This document shows, piece after piece, positions 840 through 55,151 of a stretch of DNA of 64,000 nt. Origin of the DNA: a virus. The notes under the pieces are model-generated. The model was given only the letters and a program-made list of their open reading frames with translations, was not told the DNA's origin and searched no databases. Position 1 is the first letter of the stretch, and each line of letters opens with the position of its first letter. A program made the position numbers and the translations under genes. The stretch is taken from positions 1-64,000 of IMG/VR virus record IMGVR_UViG_3300035698_026482; one strand, 5' to 3'.

Positions 840-1034
840 TTATATTTTTGCGCTGCTAAAGACGACGTTGCCGCTTGGGACAGTGAATTTATTAGTTGCC
901 TTAATCAACCAGAGACCTATATGAAAATCGATAGGGGCAGAAACATGAAATTTATATATGTCTGCGATGTGGACGTTGCTGCGTATGAACCACAGCGTAG
1001 ACATATATCGTTTCGGATGTTGAGATTGCTTCAT
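840..1034 (-). CDS. Microprotein, FxS[AC] family (array C)
   Basis: 64 aa; RYMSTLWF near the N-terminus; ends VFSSAKI*. Confidence 0.75.
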   Translation of the reverse strand: MKQSQHPKRYMSTLWFIRSNVHIADIYKFHVSAPIDFHIGLWLIKATNKFTVPSGNVVFSSAKI

Positions 1035-1035
1035 G

Positions 1036-1221
1036 TCATATACTCATGGTATTCGATGAACCAATAGCCGCACTAGAAAAGTGTAGTTGCGCGCCCTGAG
1101 CTCGCCTAGACGCAATAATCCACTTCGCGAAAGTAGCGGTATCATCAGCGATGCTCAGTACGTCCCCGGCGTACTTGCCTAGGCGCCCCATCAACCACAT
1201 GTCATTATAAACAGTCATCAT
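1036..1221 (-). CDS. Microprotein, FxS[AC] family (array C)
   Basis: 61 aa from MMTVYNDMW; ends HFSSAAIGSSNTMSI*. Confidence 0.75.
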   Translation of the reverse strand: MMTVYNDMWLMGRLGKYAGDVLSIADDTATFAKWIIASRRAQGAQLHFSSAAIGSSNTMSI

Positions 1222-1243
1222 GTTCCCATTGTTTATCGACAGG

Positions 1244-1414
1244 TCACTTCGCCCTATTTTTAATGACGGCGCTGACAAAAATAAGCTTCATATGTCCTTC
1301 GATGTGATATCGATGAAGCAACCATCTTACCATTGAATATGCGGAATCGGCATCACAAAATAGAATTCTTGTTTCTGCGCAGATCCATGTAGTATTATAG
1401 CGGATGCGGTGCAT
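1244..1414 (-). CDS. Microprotein, FxS[AC] family (array C)
   Basis: 56 aa from MHRIRYNTTW; ends IFVSAVIKNRAK*. Confidence 0.75.
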   Translation of the reverse strand: MHRIRYNTTWICAETRILFCDADSAYSMVRWLLHRYHIEGHMKLIFVSAVIKNRAK

Positions 1415-1419
1415 TTTTA

Positions 1420-1605
1420 TTAAGGCAATAATGTTGCAAGCGAACAGGATGAAAAGCAACATAACTGTGGATCAACGGACGTTGAATAACTTATGAAGAA
1501 TGCAATTGTTGTAGCATCATCGCTACATGTTATTAGTTTGCAATAATCTGAACTACAGTTTTGTTGTGATGCATTAAACCACATAACGCTATTATAAATT
1601 GTCAT
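1420..1605 (-). CDS. Microprotein, FxS[AC] family (array C)
   Basis: 61 aa from MTIYNSVMW; ends CFSSCSLATLLP*; ATGA overlap with the upstream gene. Confidence 0.75.
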   Translation of the reverse strand: MTIYNSVMWFNASQQNCSSDYCKLITCSDDATTIAFFISYSTSVDPQLCCFSSCSLATLLP

Positions 1606-1778
1606 ATTGACGAACGTCTTCGTAACGGACAGGACGAAAAATAGTACCGATAGCTGTTCTTTACGCCCGGTCTCTTCAAAAACTTTACAAGGGTGTGAGA
1701 ATCATCGTAATCGTATATTATCCCAACGCCTTTATTGACGTTCGTATAAAGCCACATGATATTATCGTAAGATGTCAT
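1602..1778 (-). CDS. Microprotein, FxS[AC] family (array C; below ORF-track cutoff)
   Basis: 58 aa, translated by hand: MTSYDNIMWLYTNVNKGVGIIYDYDDSHTLVKFLKRPGVKNSYRYYFSSCPLRRRSSI*. Confidence 0.75.
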   Translation of the reverse strand: MTSYDNIMWLYTNVNKGVGIIYDYDDSHTLVKFLKRPGVKNSYRYYFSSCPLRRRSSI

Positions 1779-1953
1779 AACATATTACTATTGCTGGTAC
1801 GACAGCCGACACAAAGTAATAAGAACAATCATGAGGGCCTGCCAATTGTTTCGGTGTACTATGATCATTGCGAACGTAAGGCCATGCCGGGGCCGGCCCA
1901 CTGTAATTGTAATACTCATTATCAATGAACCATTGAGTTTTGTACATGACCAT
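1762..1953 (-). CDS. Microprotein, FxS[AC] family (array C)
   Basis: 63 aa from MVMYKTQWF; contains YFVSAVV near the C-terminus. Confidence 0.75.
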   Translation of the reverse strand: MVMYKTQWFIDNEYYNYSGPAPAWPYVRNDHSTPKQLAGPHDCSYYFVSAVVPAIVICYDILR

Positions 1954-1957
1954 AATG

Positions 1958-2113
1958 CTAGAGTTTTGCAGAAATAAATGCATAAAGAGACGATGTAAAC
2001 CCAAGCCATTCAGCCATCTCGCAAGGCAAGTCTTCATCATATATTATAATACATTTATCGGGTTCTTGCGAATCATAGACTCGATGTGCGAACCATTGCG
2101 TTTTGTACTTCAT
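1958..2113 (-). CDS. Microprotein, FxS[AC] family (array C)
   Basis: 51 aa from MKYKTQWF; ends AFISAKL*; ATGA overlap. Confidence 0.75.
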   Translation of the reverse strand: MKYKTQWFAHRVYDSQEPDKCIIIYDEDLPCEMAEWLGFTSSLYAFISAKL

Positions 2114-2283
2114 TGACTTACAATTGTTGCAGACACGAACCATGGCCTACGTTGACCTGTGAGTTGATATGCGTATGTTACCATGACAGCAGCCTCTACG
2201 TTAATTGTCCAGCTGCTGGACGAGCGATGCACGTCGGGCGGAAAGCTAGGTGGGCGAAGGTATTGAATGCGATACGTTTTCAT
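2110..2283 (-). CDS. Microprotein, FxS[AC] family (array C; below ORF-track cutoff)
   Basis: 57 aa, translated by hand: MKTYRIQYLRPPSFPPDVHRSSSSWTINVEAAVMVTYAYQLTGQRRPWFVSATIVSQ*. Confidence 0.75.
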   Translation of the reverse strand: MKTYRIQYLRPPSFPPDVHRSSSSWTINVEAAVMVTYAYQLTGQRRPWFVSATIVSQ

Positions 2284-2285
2284 GT

Positions 2286-2489
2286 TCAACGCTGCGTGAT
2301 CTGATGTATTGGCGCTGAAGAGAATTCAAGATGTGTCGATGAGCCTGTCCTGTAACTGCAGCTCACATAGTAATATAGTAACAGTGAACTTTTACCTGGC
2401 CAAACGTTAGTGGCCCATGTTTTCTTTGCCATACGTTCGTTCCCAGGGCACGAAGACAAAATATCATATATGTGAATATCTCTATTCAT
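2286..2489 (-). CDS. Microprotein, FxS[AC] family (array C)
   Basis: 67 aa from MNRDIHIY, overlapping the endonuclease stop; ends EFSSAPIHQITQR*. Confidence 0.7.
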   Translation of the reverse strand: MNRDIHIYDILSSCPGNERMAKKTWATNVWPGKSSLLLYYYVSCSYRTGSSTHLEFSSAPIHQITQR

Positions 2490-3525
2490 ACACGCCTGCT
2501 TTGAGCTCGCCGATGAAGTGAACACCGGGTGTGGGATTCGAGATGATGTCGTAGAGTTTACCCACGCATTCGCCCCTGAATCTACCGCGCTGCAGCCATT
2601 GATCGTATGAAATGCGAATTAGGCAATACCCTAACCGTGGTAATGTCACGTTTAGTTCATGATCTTTTAATTGATTCTTTTCTAGCTTTTGATTTTTGAA
2701 TATGGCTTTAAAATGATGTTGGCCGTCATATTCAATAACAATTTTTAATTGTTCGCTACAAATGTCAAAATAGCGACGTTGTGAACTGACTGATTTAAAC
2801 GATGCATGCTTTTTTCGCACATTAAGCCGAAAATCAGCCGCATCAATTAGCGCATTAACTAAACGATGCAATTCAATTTGAGGTTTTGATGTATGCACAC
2901 CCGTTTTCTGCATTGCATCAATGCATTTAGCAAATTCTTCTGGATTCTCTTCACGCCAACGCTTAAGATTCGTCGACCGTTGAGCTTGAATTTCTGGCCG
3001 CATTGATGTAATTTTTGCGACCCTAGAACTACGTTGGCGCGCTGTATCAGTTTGGTTAAGTTCACCTAACAATTTGGATCGGCGATCTCGTTCGTCGGGA
3101 TTCGACATAATCGCATCAGATACTGTCTGACCCATCTTTACGCGATATTCTGTTAAATCATCGCCATTTGCTTTGGCTCGATTAATCCAGTCGCTATTAT
3201 ATTTGTTTTGTTCGCTGTATCGCTCTGTAGTTGCAGCACACTTTATTGGACCATAGGCTTCAATATACTCATCTTTTGCAAGTCCATGTTCACGTTTAAC
3301 ATGCGCTGTCAGGCTTTTTGCGGCGAGATTACAAATTGCGCAGCGCACAAAATCAACGCCTTCAATGCGTCCCTTGAACTTGCATTTCGGTTCATGCGTC
3401 CTTAGCGCGCCTAGGACGTTGTATTGCTTTCCGCAATGCTGACAACATCCAGGTCTTGACGGACGATCTTCCTGATCGGAAGCATTTGTCCGCATGTCGT
3501 TCTGAACTTGTGATTCGGTGTGCAT
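2482..3525 (-). CDS. Zinc-finger plus Vsr/DUF559-like putative homing endonuclease
   Basis: N-terminal CxxC..H zinc fingers; C-terminal FDI...KIVIEYDGQHHF...GYCLIRISY. Follows an IntN-bearing dnaE fragment. The start may be ATG 3495. Confidence 0.75.
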   Translation of the reverse strand: MHTESQVQNDMRTNASDQEDRPSRPGCCQHCGKQYNVLGALRTHEPKCKFKGRIEGVDFVRCAICNLAAKSLTAHVKREHGLAKDEYIEAYGPIKCAATTERYSEQNKYNSDWINRAKANGDDLTEYRVKMGQTVSDAIMSNPDERDRRSKLLGELNQTDTARQRSSRVAKITSMRPEIQAQRSTNLKRWREENPEEFAKCIDAMQKTGVHTSKPQIELHRLVNALIDAADFRLNVRKKHASFKSVSSQRRYFDICSEQLKIVIEYDGQHHFKAIFKNQKLEKNQLKDHELNVTLPRLGYCLIRISYDQWLQRGRFRGECVGKLYDIISNPTPGVHFIGELKAGVYE

Positions 3526-4103
3526 TCTATCGTGCTCCCATCGTCGAAGGTGTATTTGATAACCTCGAGTGTGCCATGGTCATGTAATGCCTTGACCTCA
3601 ACAAAGATATCTTTGCCTGTTGTTTCATCTCGTGACCGAACATATTCACCGGCATTCATATCAATTATACTACGGGTTGCAACGTATGTACCACTAGAGT
3701 CATATGTATTTATACGCGCAGAAGCCGTGACCGACCGATTGAAGCCGTAGCCACTAAAAAACTGCATCTTATCCCAGAGCTCTTCGACCTGATGATCTGT
3801 AAGCCCCATTTCCATTGCGCCCTTCTTAAATTCAGCCTTGATTCGAAAGCCTTCTGCGGCCTTTTTAGAGTTAACGTCAGTACCAATCGATTTCTTCACG
3901 AGAATACTGCGAAGTCTATCGCAATCGTCCCAACTAAGCCCAAACTCCTTTCCGATAAGCATAAAACTTTCCTGGAAGCAGTTGTGAACAACAATGTCGT
4001 TTGCAATGAAATTCGAATTATTTTTAATTGTTAAATCGTAAACACGTTGTGGCGCTTTCAATTTTTTGATTGATGAAAGTCGTAATGTCTTTGTTTTTTG
4101 CAT
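3411..4103 (-). CDS. dnaE: DNA polymerase III alpha fragment 4: IntC (3981-4103), 82-aa DnaE extein, IntN (3411-3734)
   Basis: VYDLTIKNNSNFIANDIVVHN|CFQESFML (the DnaE YQEQ region) ... FSGYGFNR|SVTASARI...IECTPNHKFRT (intein block B). Confidence 0.88.
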   Translation of the reverse strand: MQKTKTLRLSSIKKLKAPQRVYDLTIKNNSNFIANDIVVHNCFQESFMLIGKEFGLSWDDCDRLRSILVKKSIGTDVNSKKAAEGFRIKAEFKKGAMEMGLTDHQVEELWDKMQFFSGYGFNRSVTASARINTYDSSGTYVATRSIIDMNAGEYVRSRDETTGKDIFVEVKALHDHGTLEVIKYTFDDGSTIECTPNHKFRTTCGQMLPIRKIVRQDLDVVSIAESNTTS

Positions 4104-4959
4104 ATGTTTTAAGTTCCGTTAAGAAGTGCTGCGATTCAGAATGCCAAACTCTTATAATATTGAATCCGCAATTTATTGCATGTGTCGTGTATCGCCTATC
4201 AATGTGATATTGTGCTTTCATGCGAGGAGATAATGCGTATAATTTCGGGTTGCCGTGCCAATAGTCTCCATCGAACTCAATAATCAAATTAAACTCAGGT
4301 ATAAAAATATCGTATTGGTGTCCACACGCATCGATCATATACCCTTGCTTGACTGTAAAATCAGTAAACTTCTCTAGAGCTCCGACAAATTCACATTCTG
4401 CAATAGAAACGCTCTCTTGTTTTTTCCTGGTCGCAGCGGCTGCTTTCGCAATTTGGCTATATTCTTCACGCTTTTTAGTATTGCAATGAATTCGCGTTTT
4501 GTGAACCTTGAGTCCTCGGGCGCTATATGTTTTTTTTGTATCGCATAGCTCGCATACCGTGCGAGGCTTATTATTATCAGTCGATGAGCAGTACGACTTA
4601 TGGGCTTTAAGCGATGTGTTTTTCGAAAAAACCTGTTGGCATTTACCACATTTGAACTCGCCAAATTTTACAACATTTTTGTACTGCTTCGATTCATTTT
4701 GATTTGCTATCCATGCGTCTGTTAATTTCCTGCCTGCGTACCTGGCACTGAGGCCCTTATCTCTACATTCGTATGAGCAATATTTTGCGCTTTCGCGACC
4801 CGCTTTAAATTGCTCATTACAAACGGGGCAATTAAAATCATTTTTCTTTTTTGTTTGATTTATGCCTCGTAATTTAGCTCCGCAGGCGGTCGAGCACGTT
4901 TTATTTCTGCGCGATGAAAATAGGCTGTTACAAATTGGGCAATGCTCTTGGAGTATCAT
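4024..4959 (-). CDS. Zinc-finger plus Vsr/DUF559-like putative homing endonuclease
   Basis: CSxxC and C2H2 motifs; YDIFIPEFNLIIEFDGDYWHG...GFNIIRVW. Lies between the two halves of a split intein. Confidence 0.8.
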   Translation of the reverse strand: MILQEHCPICNSLFSSRRNKTCSTACGAKLRGINQTKKKNDFNCPVCNEQFKAGRESAKYCSYECRDKGLSARYAGRKLTDAWIANQNESKQYKNVVKFGEFKCGKCQQVFSKNTSLKAHKSYCSSTDNNKPRTVCELCDTKKTYSARGLKVHKTRIHCNTKKREEYSQIAKAAAATRKKQESVSIAECEFVGALEKFTDFTVKQGYMIDACGHQYDIFIPEFNLIIEFDGDYWHGNPKLYALSPRMKAQYHIDRRYTTHAINCGFNIIRVWHSESQHFLTELKTYAKNKDITTFINQKIESATTCLRFNN

Positions 4960-5615
4960 GTGCCGATAAGTATATGTTCGGTTGTTAATGCCCTAGCCTC
5001 AATCCACCCAATGGTAGTGAGAATAGGATGATCTTCTGTGCATTTCAATGTGCGACCATCATCAAAGCACAATTCAATTACATTTTTTAGTCCATTATCA
5101 TGCCATCCAATAATCGTATCACATTCGAACGAGCTTAATTCTGTGTTATAAGATAAAACTTCGTAAGGCTTTCTTGACTCAACCAGATCGCTAATTTTCT
5201 TTTTTTCCCCAGATGCAAGTGTCACAAAAGTATCACCAGTGATACACATATGTCCATACGTGTCACCAAGCACCTTTTCGATTGCCGGGTGAATATACTC
5301 TAGCTTTTCGCCGGCCTCAACTCTTTCCTTATCAGTGACGTAGGCCTTGTCAACGCCTGCGCTTAGCGGTCCTGGACGATAAATCGAAGATAGAGCAGCA
5401 AGATCGACAATCGAGCGAGGCTTAGCTTTTTGCATGAGATTTTGCATGCCTCTCTCTGTCGCCTGAAACACTGCGGCCCATTTACCATCATGAAAGACGT
5501 TTTCATACACACGCTGATCATTAAGATCGCAAGATTCGGCGTCTAGATTTTCATTGAACCACGCCTTGATATCCGTAAACTCAGGCACAATCTTTTTTGT
5601 AATCTTGGGCTTCAT
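4956..5615 (-). CDS. dnaE: DNA polymerase III alpha fragment 3: DnaE extein plus IntN (4956-5246)
   Basis: VFQ...DLAALSSIYRPGPL...LGDTYGHM|CITGDTFVTLASG...LKCTEDHPILT. Confidence 0.9.
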   Translation of the reverse strand: MKPKITKKIVPEFTDIKAWFNENLDAESCDLNDQRVYENVFHDGKWAAVFQATERGMQNLMQKAKPRSIVDLAALSSIYRPGPLSAGVDKAYVTDKERVEAGEKLEYIHPAIEKVLGDTYGHMCITGDTFVTLASGEKKKISDLVESRKPYEVLSYNTELSSFECDTIIGWHDNGLKNVIELCFDDGRTLKCTEDHPILTTIGWIEARALTTEHILIGT

Positions 5616-5624
5616 ATATCTATT

Positions 5625-7247
5625 TTACATCTGGTTGTCATAAATGTACGCCAGATTATGCATTCCCCATATCTTAACAACACCATTGACTTCGGCAACC
5701 TGTGCTTCTGTTAACCCACCCGGTTTATCTGCACGATATTTGAATCGATTAAATCGTTGTGAAAAGTCTGTCCACCAAAATCGAAGTTGCGGTCTTAAAT
5801 CGACCTTCGCGAATCCTGATTTCTCGTATCCAATGCCAGATCCGCCTAGACGTGTGTCAACATACGTTATAAGTGATCCGTGTGATTTGCAGCGTGATAA
5901 AAGCTTGCTCATGCCGCCGACGACCTGCGTGTTAAGTTGAAATGCTATTCTGGCGACTTCTGTGTAGTTTTTCCACTTTTTGTGAAATGGTCTTCTCAAT
6001 GTGGCGGCGCCAACGAGCTGGTCTTCGCAATATAGTCCATATGCATGTGAACAAGGTGTAGATCCGCCTATATGTGTTTCATTCAAAAATGCATGAGCGA
6101 GCTTATTTTCGATCTTTTTTATTGTGCAATGACGAGCGTAAATTCGTTTAGAATTTCCTAAGCGATGCGCGATCATCGATTTAATGATGGGTTGCTTAAA
6201 TTTCCATTCATCTTCGAAAATCTGAAATAGGCTCACATGCTTTTCTTTGCATGCTTTCCATTTTTGAATGTGAGCGTCTTGGTCAATTCGCAATTCATTA
6301 TGCCAATAAAGTCCATGACATTCAATTGCAAACTGTTTTGATTCGACCCATATATCAAGTTCTTTGGGCGATATAACTGTTCGATCATCAAGCACGGCGT
6401 TGTGCGTCAAGCAAACGTAATCATAAACGTCTCGTTGCCATTTACTGCTTGGTGTACATTTCGGACATGCATCGTCAGTGAATAATGCAGATAATGCTCG
6501 CTTCATTTGTGCATTGCAATTACGACATTTGATGTCAACACGCTGTGTTACACAGTTATATTGACGAACTATTTCATTGCTGTCAAACTCGAATAGTTCG
6601 TATGCTGATGCTAAACGCTCTAGGATAACGCCTTCATTCAGCTTTCTTTTTTCGCTTATTTTTTGTTTGATCTCATCAGCATTTTTGCCATGCGTCCAAT
6701 GAGATCCAGATAAAAGCGTCTTACTAATTGCTTTGCCCAATGTTACAAGGCCATCATGTGTACTTTTATCATGACCAGCATGCCATTGTGTTCTTTTACC
6801 GCTAGCGAATTTTTGCTTCATCGATATTGAGCGTTTAATTGCTGCAAGGGCAATATTTTCATGCGTTTCCTTTGTGCGTCCAGCGTTCCAATGACCACCG
6901 CGTTCAACAATATTCTTTTTTATCGCTTTTGATATTTTTGCGACGCTGACATTGTTATCTTTTGTAAGCCCCGCATTCCACGCTGGCTTATAATTTTTCT
7001 TACGTGAAATAGCGGCTTTTTCTGCGCCCCATATTTTTGAACAAGGCAGACAATATGGCTGGTAGCCCTTTTGCAACGTTACAAATTTAGTGGCTGTCTT
7101 ACATTTGCCGCATGAGCCCATATCGGGAAATAACGCATCATAAACATTTTGTGATGTTAGACCATGTGCTCGAGAAGCGTGAATCCGCAATGAATTGTAT
7201 GATTTACAATTCTTTCCACAGTCCGGGCACTTCAACAATGTCGTCAT
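5625..7247 (-). CDS. Putative homing endonuclease (C2H2 finger, WNxG repeats, Vsr-like nuclease, C-terminal GNAT-like domain)
   Basis: DRTVISPKELDIWV...FAIECHGLYWH; IYARHC; EVARIAF...VVGGMSKLL. Confidence 0.75.
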   Translation of the reverse strand: MTTLLKCPDCGKNCKSYNSLRIHASRAHGLTSQNVYDALFPDMGSCGKCKTATKFVTLQKGYQPYCLPCSKIWGAEKAAISRKKNYKPAWNAGLTKDNNVSVAKISKAIKKNIVERGGHWNAGRTKETHENIALAAIKRSISMKQKFASGKRTQWHAGHDKSTHDGLVTLGKAISKTLLSGSHWTHGKNADEIKQKISEKRKLNEGVILERLASAYELFEFDSNEIVRQYNCVTQRVDIKCRNCNAQMKRALSALFTDDACPKCTPSSKWQRDVYDYVCLTHNAVLDDRTVISPKELDIWVESKQFAIECHGLYWHNELRIDQDAHIQKWKACKEKHVSLFQIFEDEWKFKQPIIKSMIAHRLGNSKRIYARHCTIKKIENKLAHAFLNETHIGGSTPCSHAYGLYCEDQLVGAATLRRPFHKKWKNYTEVARIAFQLNTQVVGGMSKLLSRCKSHGSLITYVDTRLGGSGIGYEKSGFAKVDLRPQLRFWWTDFSQRFNRFKYRADKPGGLTEAQVAEVNGVVKIWGMHNLAYIYDNQM

Positions 7248-7968
7248 TTTCAGTTAGCTCCTTCACAGACTTTGTAGTGCCATCAGATAGATTCACCACT
7301 GAATTACCTAACAGGTTGAATGTTTGTTCGCCTAGTTTAATTTCAAACATGTCGCCTTCCTTTTTCCATTTGCGTCTAAGAATCAGGTCGATTGCACGAT
7401 CAATTACGCGTAATGTCTTAAGACCCAAAAGGTCGAATTTGATCCAACCAAATTTCTCAAGGTGCCTATAGTGCAGCCCCTCTGTCCAGGGAGTTTGAAT
7501 CTCGCCGCGAATTTTAATAACAGGCATTCTTGCTTGAATGTTCTCCGATACAATAACACCACCTGCATGACGACCGATCGCCTTATTTTGCTTGAACAGA
7601 ACCTTGATGTGTTCACCAACTTGCGGATACTTTTCGATATATTCTCGGAAGCCCTTTGAATGCGCCATGGCATCATCAAAGCGTAGCACGAAAACGTTCT
7701 TGTCATCGCCCTTCTTTTGCGTTGCCCGCATGACCTCACGCTCAACACCCTTGGTCGCTTGGTTCGTCTCGGAGAAATCAATGCCATAAAACTTTGAAAT
7801 ATCCTTTACCAGCGACTTCAGTTGTAGTGTATTATAGTTAGAAATCGGCACAACGTTTTCAGTGCCAAATTTATCACGAAGCAAGTGCTTTAATTTGTCA
7901 TTATCGGCAACATCGGAATTATGCGATGCTATTGACAACCCTTGTTTCAAAAAAGAATGACGAATCAT
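7204..7968 (-). CDS. dnaE: DNA polymerase III alpha fragment 2: 17-aa IntC plus DnaE palm region
   Basis: MIRHSFLKQGLSIASHN|SDVAD...GRHAGGVIV...KFDLLGLKTL. The start at 7968 is supported by a consensus promoter immediately upstream; the ORF track starts at 8007. Confidence 0.88.
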   Translation of the reverse strand: MIRHSFLKQGLSIASHNSDVADNDKLKHLLRDKFGTENVVPISNYNTLQLKSLVKDISKFYGIDFSETNQATKGVEREVMRATQKKGDDKNVFVLRFDDAMAHSKGFREYIEKYPQVGEHIKVLFKQNKAIGRHAGGVIVSENIQARMPVIKIRGEIQTPWTEGLHYRHLEKFGWIKFDLLGLKTLRVIDRAIDLILRRKWKKEGDMFEIKLGEQTFNLLGNSVVNLSDGTTKSVKELTENDDIVEVPGLWKEL

Positions 7969-9576
7969 ATGAGTATTATACATCACGATAACTTCATTTG
8001 TCAACATTGCGATTATAGCTCGGCGTCAGCACGAGGATTTGCGCAACATAATAAGAAAAAGCATAATATCGAAAGTGAATCATTGTTTTGCAATGTATAT
8101 GAAACACACGCCCAATTACACAAATGCGCCGGATGCAATGCCCAATCGAAATTTGTCGGTTTTACGCATGGATACGAGCAGATTTGTGGGAAGTGCAAAA
8201 GAAAAAAAGCTTTCGAAAAATTGACGCCGTGGAACAAGGGTTTAACAAAATCAACTAGTGGAAAGGTTAAAAAAGCTGCGGCGTCAATGCGTAAGCATTA
8301 CGATAAAAATAAGCACTGGTCGAAGGGTCTAAAAAAAGAAACATCAAGCATTATTGCATCGCGAAGTCATGCTGTATCGAAATCATTAAAAAAATATTAT
8401 GATGAGAACGAACATTGGTCAACGGGACTAACAAAACATACGCATACAGGGATTGCAAAGAGAAGCATTACAAACGCCGCCGTGCAAAAAGGGAAAAAGT
8501 TTTCCAAAGCGCATAAGCTTAAGCTTTCTAATGCGAAAATACTAAGCGAAAAAATTGTCGACTATCGGTTGCATGAGCATGGATTCAATCGATTAGCAGC
8601 GTATGAACATTCGCAAAAGAAGTTGCTTGTCGAGTGCATCAAATGCGAAACGCAATTTGAAAAAACATACGGCAACATTATAAACAGCGGTGGACGATGC
8701 ACAATATGTGACCCAGCATATCAAAACCAATCGTCGAAATGGCAAACAGAAATCTACGATTTCATTATTTCACAGTTCTCGGGTGATGTTATTTTAAACG
8801 ATCGTACATTATTGGGCGGTTATGAATTGGACATTTTTATCCCTTCGCTTAATTTCGCCATTGAATGTCATGGAATATATTGGCATAGCGAAGCAGCGGG
8901 AAGGTTTGATAAAAACTATCATCAAATGAAGTATCAACTTGCTCGTGAACATGGCGTTGAATTATTTCAAATTTATGAGGACGAATGGACTCAAAAAAGT
9001 GAACTTATTAAGGCGATGATTCTGCATCGACTAGGTCATAGCACGCATGTATATGCAAGAAAGCTTAATTTGCAAATCGATACGCCAAACAAAAAAGACG
9101 TTGATGATTTTATTAACAGCAATCATCTAGATGGCTCAACACGATGTCGTCATAGAATTGTACTCAGTGATGCTAATGATGAAATCTTCGGGGCCTTGAC
9201 GTTACGAAAAATCAGCTGGGGCAAATTTAAGGGTGAATTTGAAATTGCGCGCATGTGTTTCAAGCGCGGAACCAAGGTCATTGGCGGAAGCGCGCGCTTG
9301 ATCGCACACGCCAAACATCTACTTCCTGGGGACAAACTTATAACGTATGCTGATAATCGCCTTGGCGGACGGCATCATTGCTATAAAAGTAATGGCTTCG
9401 TATATTCACATTCGACGACGCCTCGATGGTGGTGGACAAATCTTACTGATCGGATGGATCGATTTCATGTTCGTGCAGATAAGGCACGTGGGCTATCAGA
9501 AAATGAAAACGCCGCATTACACGGCGTTGTCAGGATTTATGGATGTAGCAACGAATGTTACATTTATAATCCTTAG
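7969..9576 (+). CDS. Putative homing endonuclease (same family as 5625-7247), antisense to dnaE
   Basis: CQHC..H finger; PWNKGLTK repeats; DRTLLGGYELDIFIP...FAIECHGIYWHS; YARKL; EIARMCF. ATG 7969 is back-to-back with ATG 7968; ATG 7957 is an alternative start. Confidence 0.75.
   Translation: MSIIHHDNFICQHCDYSSASARGFAQHNKKKHNIESESLFCNVYETHAQLHKCAGCNAQSKFVGFTHGYEQICGKCKRKKAFEKLTPWNKGLTKSTSGKVKKAAASMRKHYDKNKHWSKGLKKETSSIIASRSHAVSKSLKKYYDENEHWSTGLTKHTHTGIAKRSITNAAVQKGKKFSKAHKLKLSNAKILSEKIVDYRLHEHGFNRLAAYEHSQKKLLVECIKCETQFEKTYGNIINSGGRCTICDPAYQNQSSKWQTEIYDFIISQFSGDVILNDRTLLGGYELDIFIPSLNFAIECHGIYWHSEAAGRFDKNYHQMKYQLAREHGVELFQIYEDEWTQKSELIKAMILHRLGHSTHVYARKLNLQIDTPNKKDVDDFINSNHLDGSTRCRHRIVLSDANDEIFGALTLRKISWGKFKGEFEIARMCFKRGTKVIGGSARLIAHAKHLLPGDKLITYADNRLGGRHHCYKSNGFVYSHSTTPRWWWTNLTDRMDRFHVRADKARGLSENENAALHGVVRIYGCSNECYIYNP
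7975..8004 (-). promoter_or_regulatory. Consensus sigma70 promoter for dnaE fragment 2 (probably leaderless mRNA)
   Basis: Minus strand TTGACA-N18-TATAAT, followed by 6 nt and then ATG at 7968. Confidence 0.75.
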
Positions 9577-11894
9577 TTTTTCATATACCCAAGCGTATGT
9601 TCAATCGTGTTTGAATCATCGTATTCAATTACATCGAATGGTACAACGTTGAATGTATGTGATCCCTCAACTGAGATGTCGACAAATTCTGTTTCTGTAT
9701 CTAGTGTGTCGACGGACACAACTCTTGCATTACCCTGCATTGATTTTAAATCAATGCCTGCTGCCAGATCTTTCGCAAAAACAACATTATTATCGATATC
9801 TAAAAAACGATGCTTTTCAACGCAAGCAATGCCTCCAAGACATCCATTAAGCTCAATTGTAATCAGTAGCGGCACATCGGTTTTATTTTCCCTAAGCTGA
9901 ACATGCGTAACGCATCTGGGAGTACCATCGGCGTCAAGCACCTCATCACCCTTACCAATGTCACCGATCGGGCTGTATGACCCGTCAGCCATCACAACCA
10001 TATGGTTACTTGCAATACAATCAATATCGGGATATGACGAACGTGCCAGAGAGATAAACCTAGCGAACAACAAATTGTACTTAATAGGATCTACATGTGT
10101 GATGTATAACACGTAACACAATAGTGATCCTGCCGCGGAATTATGAACTGCTTTTCCTTCAATGTTATAAGTGTGTGAAGGCTCAACACATAAGTCAATA
10201 ACCTTGCCTTGATAAGGCCTAATTGTTCTTTTTATTAGTTTGCTATCATCGTGTTTGGCGACGCCAACAACATCATCTAAATCTGTTAGATTTTGTGCCT
10301 CGACCCATCCTCGATTTGACGTTAAAAATTCATGATCAAGTGTACACGTAATTGTTTTACCATCATCGAATTCAAGATCAATTACATCCTCATTGATATC
10401 ATAAGTAAAAACATCAGTGACTTGTCCGATATTGTCATATGCATCAATGACGTCTTCGCCTATTGTAATTGTATCAAGGCGTTTAGGTCCATCAGACGTA
10501 AGCACATTTGATTCAGGAACAAAACACCCTCTACCGGGGCCCACCAGCATATTTTCGTTGGCAAGCTCCATGATTGACTTCATTGTCAAAAAGTAGAGCG
10601 AGAAGTTCTTTTGCTTAATAACCTCAAGTTCTTCCTCTATGCGAGCAACATATTCCGGCTTATCTGCCAGTCCGCGTTTGGTCAGTCCCTCATACGCTGC
10701 GCTTGTAAGTGCTTCATGTTCGCCTTGACCCTTTGGAACAACATACGATGGAAGCTTCACAGAGACGTTTGGACTCGTGTCACCAATCATATCATGGGCA
10801 ATATCATAAGTGCGCTCGATTGCATCAGCAACCAGCTGATCGTCGTAAAAGCTAAGCGACATCTTAGCATTGCGCCCCCTAAGCATGCGCTTTCCGTCCT
10901 TATACGCACCCCACATCTGCTCTGCATTTTTTGGATATAGCTCGCACTCAAGCTCGTCGATAGACTGGGGCAATGCTCCAGGTTCAAATTTATCTTTGCT
11001 TACCCATCCCAGCTTTTTATACATCTCACGATCCTTCCACAGATGTGGTCCAGGATAATGCGAGTCTGCAGTTGCAATGAGCGGCAATTGCGTTCTTTTG
11101 GCTAACTCAATCAAGTGCATGTTGACGAGGTGTTGCGGGCCTAACTTATTGAACTGTAGCTCAAGAAAGAAGTTCTCGCGACCGACTGCGTGCACAATAC
11201 TATCAGTCGTATTCGCCAGATCACGCTGGATTGCTTCAAATGTCTTTTGATCACCTACGCCAGGAACCATTTGATCCCATGTCAAATGCTGGTGGTGTCG
11301 CATTACGTCGTAACTTAGCGGACCTGCCAAACATGCAGAATTTACCACCAGACCCTCTGAGTGTAACTTTAGCAGCTTATAGTCAATTCTTGGGAATCTG
11401 TAGAACCCGTCGCTGTAGCTTTTTGAGACCAATGCGAAAAGATTTTCTAATCCCTTTTGTGACTTGGCAACAACAACAAGATGATGACGACGTCGAACAG
11501 GATCATACCACTTCGTCTGTTTTGATTCTTCCTCATTTTCGATAACGCTGCCGGCATCGTCGTCTGATACCTCTACGAGTCCTCGCTTGTTTTTTGCTTT
11601 TCGTTCGCGGGAAGCGTCATATTCGATTTTCCACTGCGTCAAGTCAGGATGAACATAAAACTCTACTCCTGGTATGAATTTAAACGCGCGGCCGAGCTTA
11701 TCCAATTCCCATTGATGGGATTGCGCATGTGAATATGAATTCATATGGCCGTGATCAGTTATGGCCATTGCGTTCATGCCATTTTCTAAAGCAAAATCAA
11801 AATGCTCTTTGGGATATCCAAGGCCATCATAGGTGCTAAAACCGGAATGTCCATGAAGTCCGACAAATCGTTTTGGCGGTCTTACAATGGACAC
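9573..11894 (-). CDS. dnaE: DNA polymerase III alpha fragment 1: PHP domain, cis mini-intein (10140-10526), IntN (9573-10019)
   Basis: FVGLHGHSGFSTYDG, AITDHG, ATADSHY; GPGRG|CFVPES...VHN|SAAGSL; YPDID|CIASNH... Confidence 0.95.
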   Translation of the reverse strand: MSIVRPPKRFVGLHGHSGFSTYDGLGYPKEHFDFALENGMNAMAITDHGHMNSYSHAQSHQWELDKLGRAFKFIPGVEFYVHPDLTQWKIEYDASRERKAKNKRGLVEVSDDDAGSVIENEEESKQTKWYDPVRRRHHLVVVAKSQKGLENLFALVSKSYSDGFYRFPRIDYKLLKLHSEGLVVNSACLAGPLSYDVMRHHQHLTWDQMVPGVGDQKTFEAIQRDLANTTDSIVHAVGRENFFLELQFNKLGPQHLVNMHLIELAKRTQLPLIATADSHYPGPHLWKDREMYKKLGWVSKDKFEPGALPQSIDELECELYPKNAEQMWGAYKDGKRMLRGRNAKMSLSFYDDQLVADAIERTYDIAHDMIGDTSPNVSVKLPSYVVPKGQGEHEALTSAAYEGLTKRGLADKPEYVARIEEELEVIKQKNFSLYFLTMKSIMELANENMLVGPGRGCFVPESNVLTSDGPKRLDTITIGEDVIDAYDNIGQVTDVFTYDINEDVIDLEFDDGKTITCTLDHEFLTSNRGWVEAQNLTDLDDVVGVAKHDDSKLIKRTIRPYQGKVIDLCVEPSHTYNIEGKAVHNSAAGSLLCYVLYITHVDPIKYNLLFARFISLARSSYPDIDCIASNHMVVMADGSYSPIGDIGKGDEVLDADGTPRCVTHVQLRENKTDVPLLITIELNGCLGGIACVEKHRFLDIDNNVVFAKDLAAGIDLKSMQGNARVVSVDTLDTETEFVDISVEGSHTFNVVPFDVIEYDDSNTIEHTLGYMKN

Positions 11895-14800: not shown

Positions 14801-14801
14801 A

Positions 14802-17799: not shown

Positions 17800-17800
17800 T

Positions 17801-46962: not shown

Positions 46963-46984
46963 AATATAGTCAGCACCATGCCCG

Positions 46985-49692: not shown

Positions 49693-49741
49693 GAGGTCTC
49701 TCGTACCCCAGTAAGTATCAAGAAGAATCGTCTTTCTTCAG

Positions 49742-50689
49742 CTAGGGAACGTTGGGACTGGGCAGGTTATTGCACGCAGTATCAATAACCATTAACGCAT
49801 CTTCGAAAAACTGCTCATATGATGGTGCGCAGATGTCGCCGATAAACCCGTTTGTGAACATATTCGTGAACTGTGTAAGAATAGGCGCTTGTGCCATCCA
49901 CGTATTTTCACAGTCTGGCGAATCAGGTACACTGATTAACGACAAAATGACAACATTCTTTTCATCTTGTTCTAGATACAACATATGCTCAAACGAAATT
50001 GCGGCATTTTGCTGTGATGCAGCATCCTCATCGGTAATAATAACCACTACGAGTAATGCATCATCGCGATTAAAGCCTTCATTACATTGACCTGGTGAAT
50101 TTAAGAAGCCCTCTAGCGCTGCAATCGTTGCAGAAATAGGCTCTTCAAGACCACTGCCTGTGGCACCCACATTCGCTGCACATGTAAACGCAGAACTAAT
50201 ATCATCATCCTGCGTCATGTAATTATTACCTGCGACATATGGACCACATGTCGAGGTGCTTGTTGTTGTTACTAATGCACCAAGCTTTTGACATGGTCCA
50301 GGATTATCATCAAAATCGTCTGTGGTGACAACTCCAAGATGAATGCTTTCGAGTTCGACGATATAATTTTCAATCTGATTTGCAAATGCCGGAAATGACT
50401 CAATGAGCTTTTGTTGATTATCAAACATGGATCCAGAATTGTCGATCACAAAAAGAAAATCAACGTTCTTGCACGTTAATAGATTCCCGTCTGGATCAAC
50501 ATTCATGCCACCCGATCCATCGATATCAAGCTTGTCAGCAGGCGCATCGCCGCTTTCGCTTGCTTCGCTTCCAGACATAACATCTGGTTGTTTGCCAACG
50601 CTTAATGCAAATTCGGCATCGTTTGGATTACATGCAAGTGACAATGTAGCAATAATACCAAGCAACGCCGTTTTTAATTTTCTTATCAT
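49742..50689 (-). CDS. vWA-domain lipoprotein of the type common in myxobacteria
   Basis: Lipobox LSLA|C; VDFLFVIDNSGSM (MIDAS DxSxS), LGVVTTDD, GFNRDDALLVVVIITDED. Confidence 0.7.
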   Translation of the reverse strand: MIRKLKTALLGIIATLSLACNPNDAEFALSVGKQPDVMSGSEASESGDAPADKLDIDGSGGMNVDPDGNLLTCKNVDFLFVIDNSGSMFDNQQKLIESFPAFANQIENYIVELESIHLGVVTTDDFDDNPGPCQKLGALVTTTSTSTCGPYVAGNNYMTQDDDISSAFTCAANVGATGSGLEEPISATIAALEGFLNSPGQCNEGFNRDDALLVVVIITDEDAASQQNAAISFEHMLYLEQDEKNVVILSLISVPDSPDCENTWMAQAPILTQFTNMFTNGFIGDICAPSYEQFFEDALMVIDTACNNLPSPNVP

Positions 50690-50891: not shown

Positions 50892-51077
50892 TTAAAGCTT
50901 ACGACTAGAAAATATCTGTTGACTTCCAAGTAACATACTTCGTAGTTTTTTATCATACCTGATATGGGGTGCAGCAAAATAGTCCGTGTATATAAGCTGA
51001 CCCTTTAATTTGTCAAGGAAGTAGCGAGAAAAATACATATCGTCTGGGCGAATATAGCTGCTAAATTGAGATGTCAT
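50892..51077 (-). CDS. FSSR-motif microprotein (array B)
   Basis: 61 aa containing IRPDDMYF; ends IFSSRKL*. Confidence 0.8.
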   Translation of the reverse strand: MTSQFSSYIRPDDMYFSRYFLDKLKGQLIYTDYFAAPHIRYDKKLRSMLLGSQQIFSSRKL

Positions 51078-51078
51078 G

Positions 51079-51282
51079 TTATATTTTTCTGCTTGAAAAG
51101 CATGTTTCGCCGCTGTACCATGCATCGCCAAATGTTTCTCGCAAAAATTGACCTGGAAACATAACACGAAAATAGCAAAGGTTAAGCAGTGAACCAAACT
51201 CACCGCGCAAGGAACCGCTATGTTCATTAGAATAAATGTATAAATCGCCCGTAACAACAGGGATTTTGTTATGATTTATCAT
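51079..51282 (-). CDS. FSSR-motif microprotein (array B)
   Basis: 67 aa containing VVTGDLYI; ends CFSSRKI*. Confidence 0.8.
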   Translation of the reverse strand: MINHNKIPVVTGDLYIYSNEHSGSLRGEFGSLLNLCYFRVMFPGQFLRETFGDAWYSGETCFSSRKI

Positions 51283-51541
51283 TTGGCGGACTGGTAAGCA
51301 TTTCAACTAATGCATAAACTGCTTCCTCATTATGTTTAATTAATTCTGTTCTAAGATCGATTTCTGCCCTAATAACATCTCGCGGCGGCTCAGCAGCGAT
51401 TTCATACTGATAAGCTTGTTCGTTCATGCGATGAATAATATGTCTAAGCTTGGCTGTACGAACTAGTTCCCACTCCCACGTTGCGCGACGCCCATGATGA
51501 CTAATATATTTCACCCACGTATATTTTTCTGTTTTTATCAT
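51269..51541 (-). CDS. Hypothetical protein inside array B that lacks the motif
   Basis: 90-aa ORF. Confidence 0.65.
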   Translation of the reverse strand: MIKTEKYTWVKYISHHGRRATWEWELVRTAKLRHIIHRMNEQAYQYEIAAEPPRDVIRAEIDLRTELIKHNEEAVYALVEMLTSPPNDKS

Positions 51542-51544
51542 TTG

Positions 51545-51712
51545 CTAAATCTTTCTTGAGATAAATCTGCGCCATAATGAATAGCCAACATCTGCATAGC
51601 TTAAAATCGTGTTCGGTGGGGCGGTTCTAAATTCAATCTCATGATGCTTCTGTTCATTATAAAACGGCAAGAAAAAGTAGAAATAATGATCTGCAGGCCT
51701 AATTTTCATCAT
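51545..51712 (-). CDS. FSSR-like microprotein, FISRK variant (array B; below ORF-track cutoff)
   Basis: 55 aa: MMKIRPADHYFY...LWRRFISRKI*. Confidence 0.75.
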   Translation of the reverse strand: MMKIRPADHYFYFFLPFYNEQKHHEIEFRTAPPNTILSYADVGYSLWRRFISRKI

Positions 51713-51900
51713 GTGCGCCTTGAACTAAAAATCCATTTGCGCAACATCATTCCGTCAGATGCCAGGTTTTCACCATAACTCGCTCCCTGTGACATAATAT
51801 CGCCGAAATAAGCTTCATCACGCATGTATGAAACATGCATTCCGCTCGTCTGTATCCAATGTATCAAAAAGAAACATGCATCGTTTTTATATGGCCTCAT
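51709..51900 (-). CDS. FSSR-motif microprotein (array B)
   Basis: 63 aa from MRPYKNDACFF; ends IFSSRRT*. Confidence 0.8.
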   Translation of the reverse strand: MRPYKNDACFFLIHWIQTSGMHVSYMRDEAYFGDIMSQGASYGENLASDGMMLRKWIFSSRRT

Positions 51901-52106
51901 ATCGCTAGTTTTCTTGAGCTAAAAACGTACCCAACTGAGAAGAGGTCGTATTTGCAGGCGCCCGTATAGTAGTATGTTCGGTATCTTGCAATTACGTTAT
52001 CAAGTATATCTTGGTAAAAGATAGCGTCATCATAATCCATCCATTCTCTTAGCGACATGTTTCGTTTTGGATTGAGAAGCTGTTTGTATAATTCATTCGC
52101 GCTCAT
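51897..52106 (-). CDS. FSSR-motif microprotein (array B)
   Basis: 69 aa; ends VFSSRKLAI*. Confidence 0.8.
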   Translation of the reverse strand: MSANELYKQLLNPKRNMSLREWMDYDDAIFYQDILDNVIARYRTYYYTGACKYDLFSVGYVFSSRKLAI

Positions 52107-52275
52107 AAATTCGTCTTGATGAAAACACGTCAGATGATATTAGCGTCGACAAATCAGCCCATTGGGTAACATTGCCAGCAGTCCACGTGCGGCGGATTCC
52201 GCCAATATAATCAATTCCCGCTGCAAGCATCACGAAATCGTTATGCTTAATCAATGTGTAATTCATTTGCATCAT
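52093..52275 (-). CDS. FSSR-motif microprotein (array B)
   Basis: 60 aa containing IKHNDFVM; ends VFSSRRIYERE*. Confidence 0.8.
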   Translation of the reverse strand: MMQMNYTLIKHNDFVMLAAGIDYIGGIRRTWTAGNVTQWADLSTLISSDVFSSRRIYERE

Positions 52276-52499
52276 CTATTCACCCTTCGTGATGAGAAAT
52301 AATATGCCACTAATTCATGATATCCCGTACGCAAGACAAAATTAGTACCGTATTTATATTCGTACAGTAGCGGCGCATCACCAAAAAAAGCAATCGCGTC
52401 ATCGTCGGATATCAATTTTTCGACACGACATTTTTCACAGCCACGAGTCATTATTCCTGACATTACATGGATTGAATAGTCATCCTTGTATGCAATCAT
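52272..52499 (-). CDS. FSSR-motif microprotein (array B)
   Basis: 75 aa from MIAYKDDYSI; ends YFSSRRVNR*. Confidence 0.8.
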   Translation of the reverse strand: MIAYKDDYSIHVMSGIMTRGCEKCRVEKLISDDDAIAFFGDAPLLYEYKYGTNFVLRTGYHELVAYYFSSRRVNR

Positions 52500-52702
52500 T
52501 ATTCGGCTTTTGTTATTATTTTTCGTGACGAGAAAACGTCAAGCATGTGCTCATACGTCCGTAGTCCGAACTTGCCTACGTAATCAGCCTGGAAATAATC
52601 GATAACTGTTCCGACAAAGTAATTGTCGGGATCTGTTACGTCAAGCTTTTCATTGCCATGAAAATAGATGTACAAATCATTAAGTTCTACGGGTACCCGC
52701 AT
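52499..52702 (-). CDS. FSSR-motif microprotein (array B)
   Basis: 67 aa from MRVPVELNDLYI; ends VFSSRKIITKAE*. Confidence 0.8.
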   Translation of the reverse strand: MRVPVELNDLYIYFHGNEKLDVTDPDNYFVGTVIDYFQADYVGKFGLRTYEHMLDVFSSRKIITKAE

Positions 52703-52874
52703 TTGATACCCTTCGCGATGAGAAAACGTAGCAGTAATTGTTGTGTGCATAATGTGATGCGGATCTAGCGGATCTCGTGTATGTTATATGGGTGGTATAT
52801 ACGTTGCACACGTCAGCGAACTGTGGAGGGCTATACCGATACACACACGCTTTATCGCCAGTTCTGGAATTCAT
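52680..52874 (-). CDS. FSSR-motif microprotein (array B)
   Basis: 64 aa from MNSRTGDKAC; ends VFSSRRVSNAGTRRT*. Confidence 0.78.
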   Translation of the reverse strand: MNSRTGDKACVYRYSPPQFADVCNVYTTHITYTRSARSASHYAHNNYCYVFSSRRVSNAGTRRT

Positions 52875-53086
52875 GTTGTGCTAATCTTTCGTGACGAGAA
52901 AGTTTCAATGTGAAAACCCGAAGGCGTCCAGGCACTTAATTGTGGATTGCGTAAGGTCATCGAGTCCTTTGTTAACGGATAATATGAATACCTTGTCCTG
53001 CCGGGTCTTGATGGACATCGCCAGTAGACGATTATTCCATACGTCGGGGTAACCCTGAACACGTGATCAAGTGACGTTGACAGCAT
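52871..53086 (-). CDS. FSSR-motif microprotein (array B)
   Basis: 71 aa containing SLDHVF; ends TFSSRKISTT*. Confidence 0.8.
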   Translation of the reverse strand: MLSTSLDHVFRVTPTYGIIVYWRCPSRPGRTRYSYYPLTKDSMTLRNPQLSAWTPSGFHIETFSSRKISTT

Positions 53087-53088
53087 TG

Positions 53089-53277
53089 TTATCTATTCGC
53101 TTTCCGTGATGAGAAAATATATTCGTCCGTGTACGAACGTTGAACGCTGCGGGACGTAGCATATGCGATATAAGCACCACCGTTCAGCGTGGTAGCAATT
53201 GAACGATCAAGTACACGGAAATTTGAATCTTCGCGTGACCAGGCTATAAAATAGTGATCGTCGAAAACTATAGGCAT
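53089..53277 (-). CDS. FSSR-motif microprotein (array B)
   Basis: 62 aa from MPIVFDDHYF; ends IFSSRKANR*. Confidence 0.8.
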   Translation of the reverse strand: MPIVFDDHYFIAWSREDSNFRVLDRSIATTLNGGAYIAYATSRSVQRSYTDEYIFSSRKANR

Positions 53278-54869
53278 GCATTCCCTTGTAATTCGAATCG
53301 TGCATTAGGACAGCCATAAATTTTAACAAGACCTCGAGCTGCGGCAACAGCCGCTTGCGACAATCCTTGTGTCTTATCTGCAGTAACGTATAATCGCGGA
53401 TATCTGTTTACAAAATCTGTCCACCAAAATCTAGAGCTTGTTAGACCGGTGTAGGTAAATCCAATATTACTATACCCGACACCTAAGCCTATTCGACGAT
53501 CTGCATAAGTCATAATAGATTTTGTATTATCGATATCGTTTCTTGCGTGCTTTAAAAGCTTTGACAATCCGCCGATAACGTATAGATTAAGTGACGTAGC
53601 ATATCGCGCTATTTCCAAGAAATTCTTTTTGTGCGTCTTTGAAATCGGTGTTCGTAACGAAAGCGCAGCAACAATTTCATTGTCATGAATTAAGGCATAT
53701 GCAGCCTTCGCGTTTCCAGTATCACCATCTAAGTGCGTCGAATTAAAAAATGTCTGGCGTTGGGCGCGCGTAAGTTTCTCGATTCGACATTTTCGTGCAT
53801 AAATTTTTGTGCAATCAACCTTTAGACGATTTCTGATCATCGATTTAACAATCTGTTGTTTGTCACGCCACTCGTCTTCAAAGATATGAAACAGGGGTAA
53901 GTCAATTGCTTCACACAACTGCGTTTTATCCCAATGCGCATCATTATTCGTTAATATTTCTTCAGAATGCCAATATAACCCATTAAATTCAATTGCTAAC
54001 GTATTCGGCACAAGTATATCGATTTCTTTAGGTGCTATTGTATTTCTATCGTTTAATATAGCGTCAGGCCTGAGGGCTTTTACGAAGTCATATACTTCCC
54101 TCTCTGATTTCCACTTTGGCATGCATGAAGGGCAATACTGGCGCCGAAGCATGTATTTGTATGTCCGCTCAAATGTTGTATCACATGTCGTGCATTTAAA
54201 TGTCGCTCGTGAATTCACGCCTGCGTATTCGTCAATTGACGAATATAATTCGAATCCTTTCATTTCAGCACATCGTTCAGCAACGACGTTTTTATCAAGC
54301 ATTTGCGACGCGCTTATTTTCGCTGCGCCAATGATCAGTCCGGGTGTATCGTCTTTTGTCTTATTACGATTCCACGGGACAGTTGTTCCATCAGCAAAAT
54401 TAGCCAGTTTTGTTTCTGACATTTGCTTTATTGATGCGCTCGTATCTTTTGTTAGTCCATTTTGCCATGGAACTAGTCTGCCTTCTGCGTATCCGCGCTG
54501 CAATGTCTCTGCAGTTTTCTTTGCGATGGCCCTAACTCTGCTATCTTGCTTTGTTAAACCCTTATTCCACGAGCCATGTATTTTACGATGCTTTGCCGAT
54601 GCTAGCGTCGCTGCTTTTCGAGCCTTGTCGCTGAATCCATTATGACCAACAACAAACTTTGAAAATGCACGATTATCATCTGTCCAGCGTTGTGCCAATG
54701 ATACAGTTTCGCCGCAGCCGCATGAACATGTGGGAACCTCACCATTATGCAACATATCTGCGAAAATTTTCGACCTAGATACATCGCGATGCGCTTTCGT
54801 GATATGACAGGCCATACCGCGCCGCGTTTTTACGATTGCGCAAATAGGGCACTTGTAATCGACTGGCAT
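53268..54869 (-). CDS. Putative homing endonuclease (same family as 5625-7247), inserted in array B
   Basis: CPIC..H, CSCGCG, WNKGLTK repeats, DRNTIAPKEIDI...AIEFNGLYWHS, YARKC, EIARY. Confidence 0.75.
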   Translation of the reverse strand: MPVDYKCPICAIVKTRRGMACHITKAHRDVSRSKIFADMLHNGEVPTCSCGCGETVSLAQRWTDDNRAFSKFVVGHNGFSDKARKAATLASAKHRKIHGSWNKGLTKQDSRVRAIAKKTAETLQRGYAEGRLVPWQNGLTKDTSASIKQMSETKLANFADGTTVPWNRNKTKDDTPGLIIGAAKISASQMLDKNVVAERCAEMKGFELYSSIDEYAGVNSRATFKCTTCDTTFERTYKYMLRRQYCPSCMPKWKSEREVYDFVKALRPDAILNDRNTIAPKEIDILVPNTLAIEFNGLYWHSEEILTNNDAHWDKTQLCEAIDLPLFHIFEDEWRDKQQIVKSMIRNRLKVDCTKIYARKCRIEKLTRAQRQTFFNSTHLDGDTGNAKAAYALIHDNEIVAALSLRTPISKTHKKNFLEIARYATSLNLYVIGGLSKLLKHARNDIDNTKSIMTYADRRIGLGVGYSNIGFTYTGLTSSRFWWTDFVNRYPRLYVTADKTQGLSQAAVAAARGLVKIYGCPNARFELQGNACL

Positions 54870-54894
54870 CTTACATATTATACATATGTTAGAT
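54868..54894 (-). promoter_or_regulatory. Hairpin overlapping the endonuclease start codon, containing TATAAT
   Basis: ATCTAACATAT-GTATA-ATATGTAAGAT|G, an 11-bp stem with 1 mismatch. Confidence 0.6.
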
Positions 54895-54917
54895 CAATAT
54901 GTTTGGTCCAGCCTGCA

Positions 54918-55151
54918 CTATTGTTTAGCAATGCCGAGACGACGGGATGAGAAAACATCGTATTCCCAATATCCCAGTATGCCTCCCGATGTTGAATATT
55001 CATGCGCGGTTGGCCACGTATCAATGAAATGGTCAAGTGGGAGGGCCCAGTGGTTATAATTCGTTAATATTAACATCCTGGATTGTGCCCAATCAGATAA
55101 AGTCACGTCGTCGAGGGCACCAATATGCGTTGCATTCTGCTTTAGTATCAT
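54918..55151 (-). CDS. FSSR-motif microprotein (first gene of array B)
   Basis: 77 aa from MILKQNA; ends VFSSRRLGIAKQ*; starts just downstream of the tube-gene terminator. Confidence 0.75.
   Translation of the reverse strand: MILKQNATHIGALDDVTLSDWAQSRMLILTNYNHWALPLDHFIDTWPTAHEYSTSGGILGYWEYDVFSSRRLGIAKQ

Follow-up and report, generated by a model that had tools for sequence, protein, structure and literature searches.

Arrays of small, variable proteins with conserved ends flank dnaE in a large uncultured phage and its relatives

We describe a family of small proteins, the FSSR family, that is encoded by 40 genes in the first 64,000 nucleotides (contig bases 1-64000; the window) of the uncultured virus contig IMGVR_UViG_3300035698_026482 and by 3 further copies elsewhere on that contig, which has 182,840 bases and an estimated completeness of 53%. 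Positions are those of the window; those prefixed G000 refer to the whole contig, and those prefixed L refer to related loci. All 40 genes lie on the minus strand, and they account for ~7.7 kb of the 64-kb window. The conserved unit is bipartite, with D-x-h-h-h close to the N terminus and h-F-S-S-R-x-h close to the C terminus (h, hydrophobic), and the variable middle is 25 to 80 residues long. The family, this bipartite signature, and its clade-wide synteny are undescribed in the libraries and papers searched. With confidence that is evenly poised, we favor a reading in which the fixed ends frame a small beta fold showing a fast-changing middle, the set being an accessory repertoire of host-binding proteins.

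The C-terminal motif was counted within the final 17 residues of frames at least 40 codons long, with 15 order-4 Markov simulations as background. [FW]SSR was present in 29 of the 681 window frames versus a simulated mean of 0.6, so it is not at the background frequency of short-frame C termini; a relaxed form occurred 31 times (1.5 expected), and F[SVI]S[AC], the ending of array C (listed below), occurred 9 times (1.3 expected). The remaining 119 kb of the contig holds 2 [FW]SSR frames. Serine codons switch between TCN and AGY (25:7 at the first serine and 26:7 at the second), and the motif arginine uses all six of its codons. Because both serine families and all six arginine codons are used, the constraint must act on the peptide, as an initial annotation of this DNA had proposed. 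That annotation had given the motif as FSSR followed by K or R. FSSR itself stands, and the basic residue, which directly follows it in 27 of 31 members here versus 6 of 18 in relatives, is mostly the Shine-Dalgarno sequence of the next gene and lies outside the core motif. What had been missed is a hydrophobic residue five places after F, found in 63 of 65 nonredundant members, array C included. The tail after F has 5 to 16 residues (mode 7; 29 of 65, or 45%), and the final residue is free, taking 18 different values across the 65 members.

Near the other end, 34 of 45 members have D-x-h-h within their first 20 residues, compared with 6.7 in shuffles. The residue before D is G in 12 of 62 and N or D in 21, and a few members have the full K-x-G-D form. 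Array C is without the arginine and mostly also without the N-terminal aspartate (D pattern kept in 3 of 10; Fisher P value = 0.0095, with members that are not independent). Besides Met, the sole invariant residues are D and R. The middles of 38 of 42 members match no other member, in agreement with the earlier remark that they share no visible similarity apart from recent duplicates. The family genes and associated features are as follows.

12224-15590, minus strand: array A, 17 head-to-tail genes, running into a helix-turn-helix (HTH) gene and the first dnaE piece; genes at 15399-15590, 15177-15341, 14947-15180, 14802-14996, 14534-14800, 14332-14550, 14114-14335, 13977-14117, 13834-13980, 13634-13837, 13413-13637, 13129-13416, 12965-13129, 12762-12968, 12598-12762, 12406-12601 (frameshifted), and 12224-12409
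50892-55151, minus strand: array B, 12 genes downstream of a tail-tube-like gene; genes at 54918-55151, 53089-53277, 52871-53086, 52680-52874, 52499-52702, 52272-52499, 52093-52275, 51897-52106, 51709-51900, 51545-51712, 51079-51282, and 50892-51077
53268-54869: endonuclease-like gene interrupting array B
51269-51541: non-family 90-aa gene interrupting array B
840-2489, minus strand: array C, 9 genes ending in F-[S/V/I]-S-[A/C]-x-[I/L/V], downstream of a dnaE piece; genes at 2286-2489, 2110-2283, 1958-2113, 1762-1947, 1602-1778, 1420-1605, 1244-1414, 1036-1221, and 840-1034
17229-17363, minus strand: solo member, 44 aa
29117-29290, minus strand: solo member, 57 aa, F-S-N-R form, between recA and a dUTPase gene
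G000 92781-93020, 139334-139528, and 151088-151306: solo copies outside the window
12508-12515, minus strand: run of eight C (C8), where the frame of the 12406-12601 gene changes
12598-13158, minus strand: recent duplicate pair 12598-12762 and 12965-13129, 194 nt, 78% alike, 367 apart
13833-14074, minus strand: recent duplicate pair, last 99 nt common at 97%, 5' parts unrelated

All of the frames picked out by the initial annotation (17 in array A, 12 in array B, two solo, and nine in array C) are present on the minus strand where it had placed them; 16 of the 17 array A genes are intact, and its two solo copies are joined by the three outside the window. The frameshifted gene has its G-D-L-I-L start motif in the upstream frame and its FSSR end in the downstream frame. 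The C8 run has identical letters in an independent run; it may represent either a slipped-strand on/off switch or a simple lesion. Non-family genes lie within or next to both array A and array B, and solo copies lie inside operons, overlapping neighbor genes.

Relatives were found by a dnaE search of other phage contigs. In L164 (OFQY01000002.1), 65 kb of sequence holds 20 members, which occupy the sites of all three arrays or stand as solos; L082 (IMGVR_UViG_3300006056_001428; DnaE, 55%) has 11 members flanking dnaE; and L162 (Ga0307377_10133699; DnaE, 79%) has three in front of dnaE, which match window genes at their ends and have replaced middles (38 to 46% identity). The array B site of a relative is L259:1099-3193, and the array C site in L082 and L164 carries an F-S-S-C gene. 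In one subfamily (L082:14726-16240), a basic amphipathic helix is added at the N terminus and a Q-L-x-E-H-G hairpin is invariant. A solo member at L164:18498-18800, between a structural gene and a dnaE piece, has no orthologue on our contig and is conserved like core genes in three lineages (92 to 95% identity; ratio of nonsynonymous to synonymous substitution rates [dN/dS], 0.05). No family members turned up in a set of 236 more distantly related loci (3.1 Mb on one strand, with some redundancy), and HTH, nucleotidyltransferase, vWA, and kinase queries yielded no new relatives.

Selection was measured between L082 and L164, with the same pipeline on neutrally evolved copies as the neutral control. 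Eight array orthologues gave a dN/dS of 0.26 at dS 1.10 (motif, 0.05; remainder, 0.28), compared with 0.06 at dS 1.02 for twelve core genes and 0.76 (range, 0.51 to 0.98) for the control; identity was 62%, versus 18 to 25% under neutrality. An out-of-frame DnaE comparison with L162 was left out of account. One 100-aa solo member has a dN/dS of 0.04 to 0.05 over its whole length, and the one informative paralogue pair in the present genome (12598-12762 and 12965-13129) has 0.46. Because of this purifying selection, the family represents real proteins in the L082/L164 lineage, and its genes are presumably expressed; the earlier view of a diversifying family of small proteins with fixed terminal elements is supported. 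That the genes are instead decaying duplicates, functionless chance frames, or the output of a diversity-generating retroelement is most improbable. Their codon-position composition is near-random, one member is frameshifted, and gene callers missed most of them, all of which would suit decay or chance, but the selection test largely refutes it. A retroelement is disfavored by paralogue differences without A (15 of 36 and 11 of 30) and by common indels; neither a reverse transcriptase nor a template repeat is present on the contig, which is 53% complete.

Adjacent family genes overlap by 1 to 23 nt. The K/R-V codons give a 5- to 6-nt Shine-Dalgarno match for the next gene in 10 junctions, and 11 of 21 junctions have the next start 23 nt beyond the F codon. 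Since every gene supplies its successor with a ribosome-binding site, array units are self-contained. Promoter-like sites (16 versus 14.1 expected) and terminators (3 versus 5.9 expected) are at background. Stop-codon recoding or fusion into long repeats was considered and rejected, because the genes use all three stops and the frame varies among junctions. The spacing, the Shine-Dalgarno matches, a deletion junction adjoining the motif, and the solo copies that overlap their neighbors inside operons could also mean that the motif acts in translation (through an effect of the nascent peptide on termination and re-initiation) or simply as a cassette for recombination and ribosome binding, the proteins being largely by-products. 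We consider this quite unlikely, because relatives keep the peptide at distances of 20 to 84 nt from the next start, because the serine codons switch families, and because middles and N termini are under selection.

The deletion in question occurs in L251-L254, which are 99% identical to L082: 931 nt are missing, which removes three genes and leaves a hybrid gene, and the junction lies within 5 nt after the codon following S-S-R (the motif-proline codon). The pair at 13833-14074 is a segment exchange inside a gene. This junction and the shared 99-nt end indicate that units are lost and recombined at motif DNA, which accords with microhomology recombination in T4 (PMC9391042); the single deletion event further suggests that motif DNA may drive recombination generally. 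The joint from 13002 to 12636, seen in one contig, may be an artifact because exactly 30 letters are shared, which we take to be the overlap of a 31-mer assembly graph. Also among strains that are 99% alike, a 182-aa open reading frame (ORF) follows the first dnaE piece in L252:2074-2622 and L253:6798-7346 and is absent from L249 and L251.

We propose that the family consists of lineage-specific, expanded, small, beta-rich accessory proteins. The first strand (D-x-h-h-h) would meet the last strand and turn (h-F-S-S-R-x-h), closing a small fold, perhaps with an Asp-Arg contact. The middle of 25 to 80 residues changes approximately five times faster than core genes, and the varied middles would form a repertoire of binders, most likely for host takeover or counterdefense. 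Each gene's last codons carry the ribosome-binding site of the next gene, and arrays would shrink, grow, and form hybrids via unequal recombination at short DNA likeness around the motif. A role against the host is suggested by the precedent of the T4 internal proteins (PMC3012670). In favor of the fold are the loss of D and R together in most of array C and the constraint that extends outside the motif, over the whole length in one solo member; two AlphaFold models also have a strand directly after D and a strand ending at F/L-S. One option in the initial annotation had been that the conserved ends are the first and last strands of a tiny SH3/KOW-like barrel. The strands fit best, given conservation at both ends, a motif whose distance from the C terminus varies, and an unconstrained last residue; pattern and position support the SH3/KOW assignment, which profile comparison and the two models did not confirm.

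Several observations weigh against this proposal. Selection was measured mainly in the sister lineage, the close strains of this phage having too little variation. The AlphaFold models are all-beta but weak (predicted local distance difference test [pLDDT] scores of 55 and 64), and VIA-align found no SH3-like chain for them, the best Z scores (3.9 to 4.1) belonging to other folds. An invariant polar S-S-R is more typical of a recognized surface than of a fold core. Codon-position GC contents are 0.44/0.43/0.42 in the family versus 0.55/0.40/0.39 in core genes, and, because this core-gene bias is lacking, many middles may be poorly folded. For SH3/KOW kinship, hhalign comparison of the FSSR and K-x-G-D-L-V sets gave 0.3 to 1.7%, with real scores equal to shuffled ones, and anchored scores are negative in absolute terms.

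The K-x-G-D-L-V genes are a second kind of microprotein, carried beside dnaE by several of the distant loci instead of FSSR genes (near dnaE in L124, L127, L135, L143, L155, and L166; up to ~20 genes). They match no Pfam or PHROG family, and their KOW matches are weak (uL24 and NusG KOW; E values of 0.12 to 1.4). These KOW/SH3-like arrays of related large phages (K-x-G-D-L-V start, L-E-V-I end) resemble the FSSR arrays in gene size, in overlapping head-to-tail layout, in their dnaE-flanking sites, and in an Asp before a hydrophobic first strand, whereas the canonical set is without the invariant S-S-R. Both kinds share the end pattern h-h-p-p-p-p-h (hydrophobic at 0.61 and 0.75, then 0.14 to 0.46, then L), a register with the best score among full overlaps. 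The h-x4-h spacing of strand 4, 3-10 turn, and strand 5 recurs in FSSR genes as a pattern only, and NusG KOW ends with the same spacing. One array member, of ~75, bridges the two (L259:2578-2790): it begins with M-K-I-G-D, and its score of 10.8 bits on the canonical profile exceeds those of 300 shuffles. At G000 165487-166059, 170253-170570, and 172929-173513 (L262-L264), four canonical KOW/SH3-like genes coexist with the family. Judged from pattern-level support, the FSSR family could be a degenerate offshoot of these arrays, a descent that we rate as conceivable though somewhat short of even; it is not filed under the KOW/SH3-like arrays.

The polarity and near-invariance of S-S-R over 65 members keep another explanation in play, namely, that one phage or host partner (such as a protease, a virion-loading site, or a hub) reads the motif, by itself or clasped with the N-terminal strand, as a docking tag, with the variable middle as cargo or a target-selecting adaptor by analogy with the T4 internal proteins. 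The motif dN/dS of 0.05 equals that of core genes while the middles are unalignable, and 45% of members, including some without gene overlap, have a tail of exactly 7 residues. We nevertheless think it rather unlikely. The remaining members vary in tail length and last residue, and the N-terminal D motif and the whole-length constraint of some members would need further explanation. The forms named in the initial annotation (a tag read by the phage ClpP, the capsid or ejection machinery, or a host hub) are weakened: clpP is absent in 65 kb of L164, including the matching site beside an HD gene (it could lie elsewhere), and head-protein-like genes at 57447-62278 carry a different, N-terminal motif. 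Because the C terminus is free, a classical degron is argued against.

A more specific variant, to which we give still less weight, is that the two ends form a clasp by which all members dock on a single machine of the phage or host, be it a protease, a polymerase-linked hub, or a virion-loading site. The arrays would then supply interchangeable adaptors shuffled by recombination, a phage counterpart to F-box-type families, and the motif DNA would also serve for shuffling and ribosome binding.

Database searches agree with the earlier statement that no described family is recognizable. When 30 members were scanned against Pfam and PHROG, no family matched more than one of them (best E value, 0.007); a word search with the family alignment returned nothing at E ≤ 10; and a seven-member subfamily profile from a relative matched only itself among 1.84 and 5.8 billion proteins. 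Leave-one-out family profiles score 4 to 32 bits, so whole-database searches are blind to distant members and these blanks do not show absence. The ESM Atlas gave no feature match (models with pLDDT of 0.43 and 0.36), Foldseek against viral models gave nothing at E ≤ 0.001, VIA-align gave weak beta-sheet and FKBP/parvulin arrangements only, a DNA pattern scan of IMG/VR gave 0, and literature searches did not find a description of the motif. A Tat motif was rejected, as the FSSR element is C-terminal and without a hydrophobic helix.

The window encodes a tail sheath, tube, baseplate, recA, split dnaE, and ClpP, and the virus is therefore a T4-like jumbo phage. Salt-lake metagenomes contain near-identical DNA, and no RNA data set is among the listed holders of such DNA. 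The acidic gene cluster at 57447-62278 has a common N-terminal motif, M-K-L-T ... I-I-R-E-E, also found in a relative (L260:2075-2329), such as would be expected of head-packaged proteins. A vWA lipoprotein at 49742-50689 has a CglD-like match (E value, 5.7e-11) and a metalloprotease at 32116-32868 has a weak MXAN_2677-like match, both far below cut-off; these matches hint at a myxobacteria-like host. The dnaE gene lies in pieces at 2482-11894, with inteins and interleaved endonuclease genes; it is also split in L082 and L164, with saccharopine-dehydrogenase-like and structural genes between pieces. In L162 (643-700), a TAG stands in the dnaE frame shortly after the G-H-S codons, possibly an intron or assembly error. 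Directly after array C, a structural-type ORF (3-773) built of three 69-aa repeats runs off the contig end.

These results show how a large phage can keep tens of selected microproteins, most of them overlooked by gene callers, that share fewer than 10 residues, and how a single short coding motif can be of use at once to the protein, to translation start, and to recombination. Should the middles prove to be host-targeting binders, the family would be a ready screening set for counterdefense or host-takeover proteins, probably against myxobacteria-like hosts; if the KOW ancestry is true, it would link to the widespread, unstudied K-x-G-D-L-V arrays of large phages.

The capsid targeting sequence of T-even phages is N-terminal. 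It is carried by the internal proteins IPI, IPII, and IPIII (PMC3012670; PMC9391042), which, like the FSSR family, are diverse small phage proteins with one short conserved element and which serve as a model for a counterdefense repertoire. In contrast to their removable targeting sequence and few genes, the FSSR family has two conserved ends and 20 to 43 copies, and its strongest motif is C-terminal; no T4-type N-terminal capsid targeting sequence was found in it, the N termini sharing only D-x-h-h at variable depth. In ssrA-like tags and ClpX C-motifs, residues are fixed at the free carboxyl end, whereas the FSSR tail has 5 to 16 residues and 18 different last residues. Tandem arrays of small variable genes are already known in jumbo and T4-type phages (PMC5646251; PMC2839356). 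Arrays in the jumbo phages G and 121Q comprise more than 30 tandem genes (Hua et al. 2017, PMC5646251) and, like the FSSR arrays, are large sets of small genes produced by duplication; those genes are described as very similar, whereas 38 of 42 FSSR members are unlike outside their ends and the family is also scattered singly. PeSL cassettes occur in the hyperplastic regions of T4-type phages (Arbiol et al. 2010, PMC2839356), and T4 undergoes microhomology-driven amplification and recombination (PMC9391042); as in the FSSR arrays, small nonessential genes are gained, lost, and shuffled by recombination at short repeats. PeSLs, however, are intergenic cassettes of a promoter and a stem-loop, whereas in the FSSR arrays the likeness lies inside a coding motif and the genes overlap.

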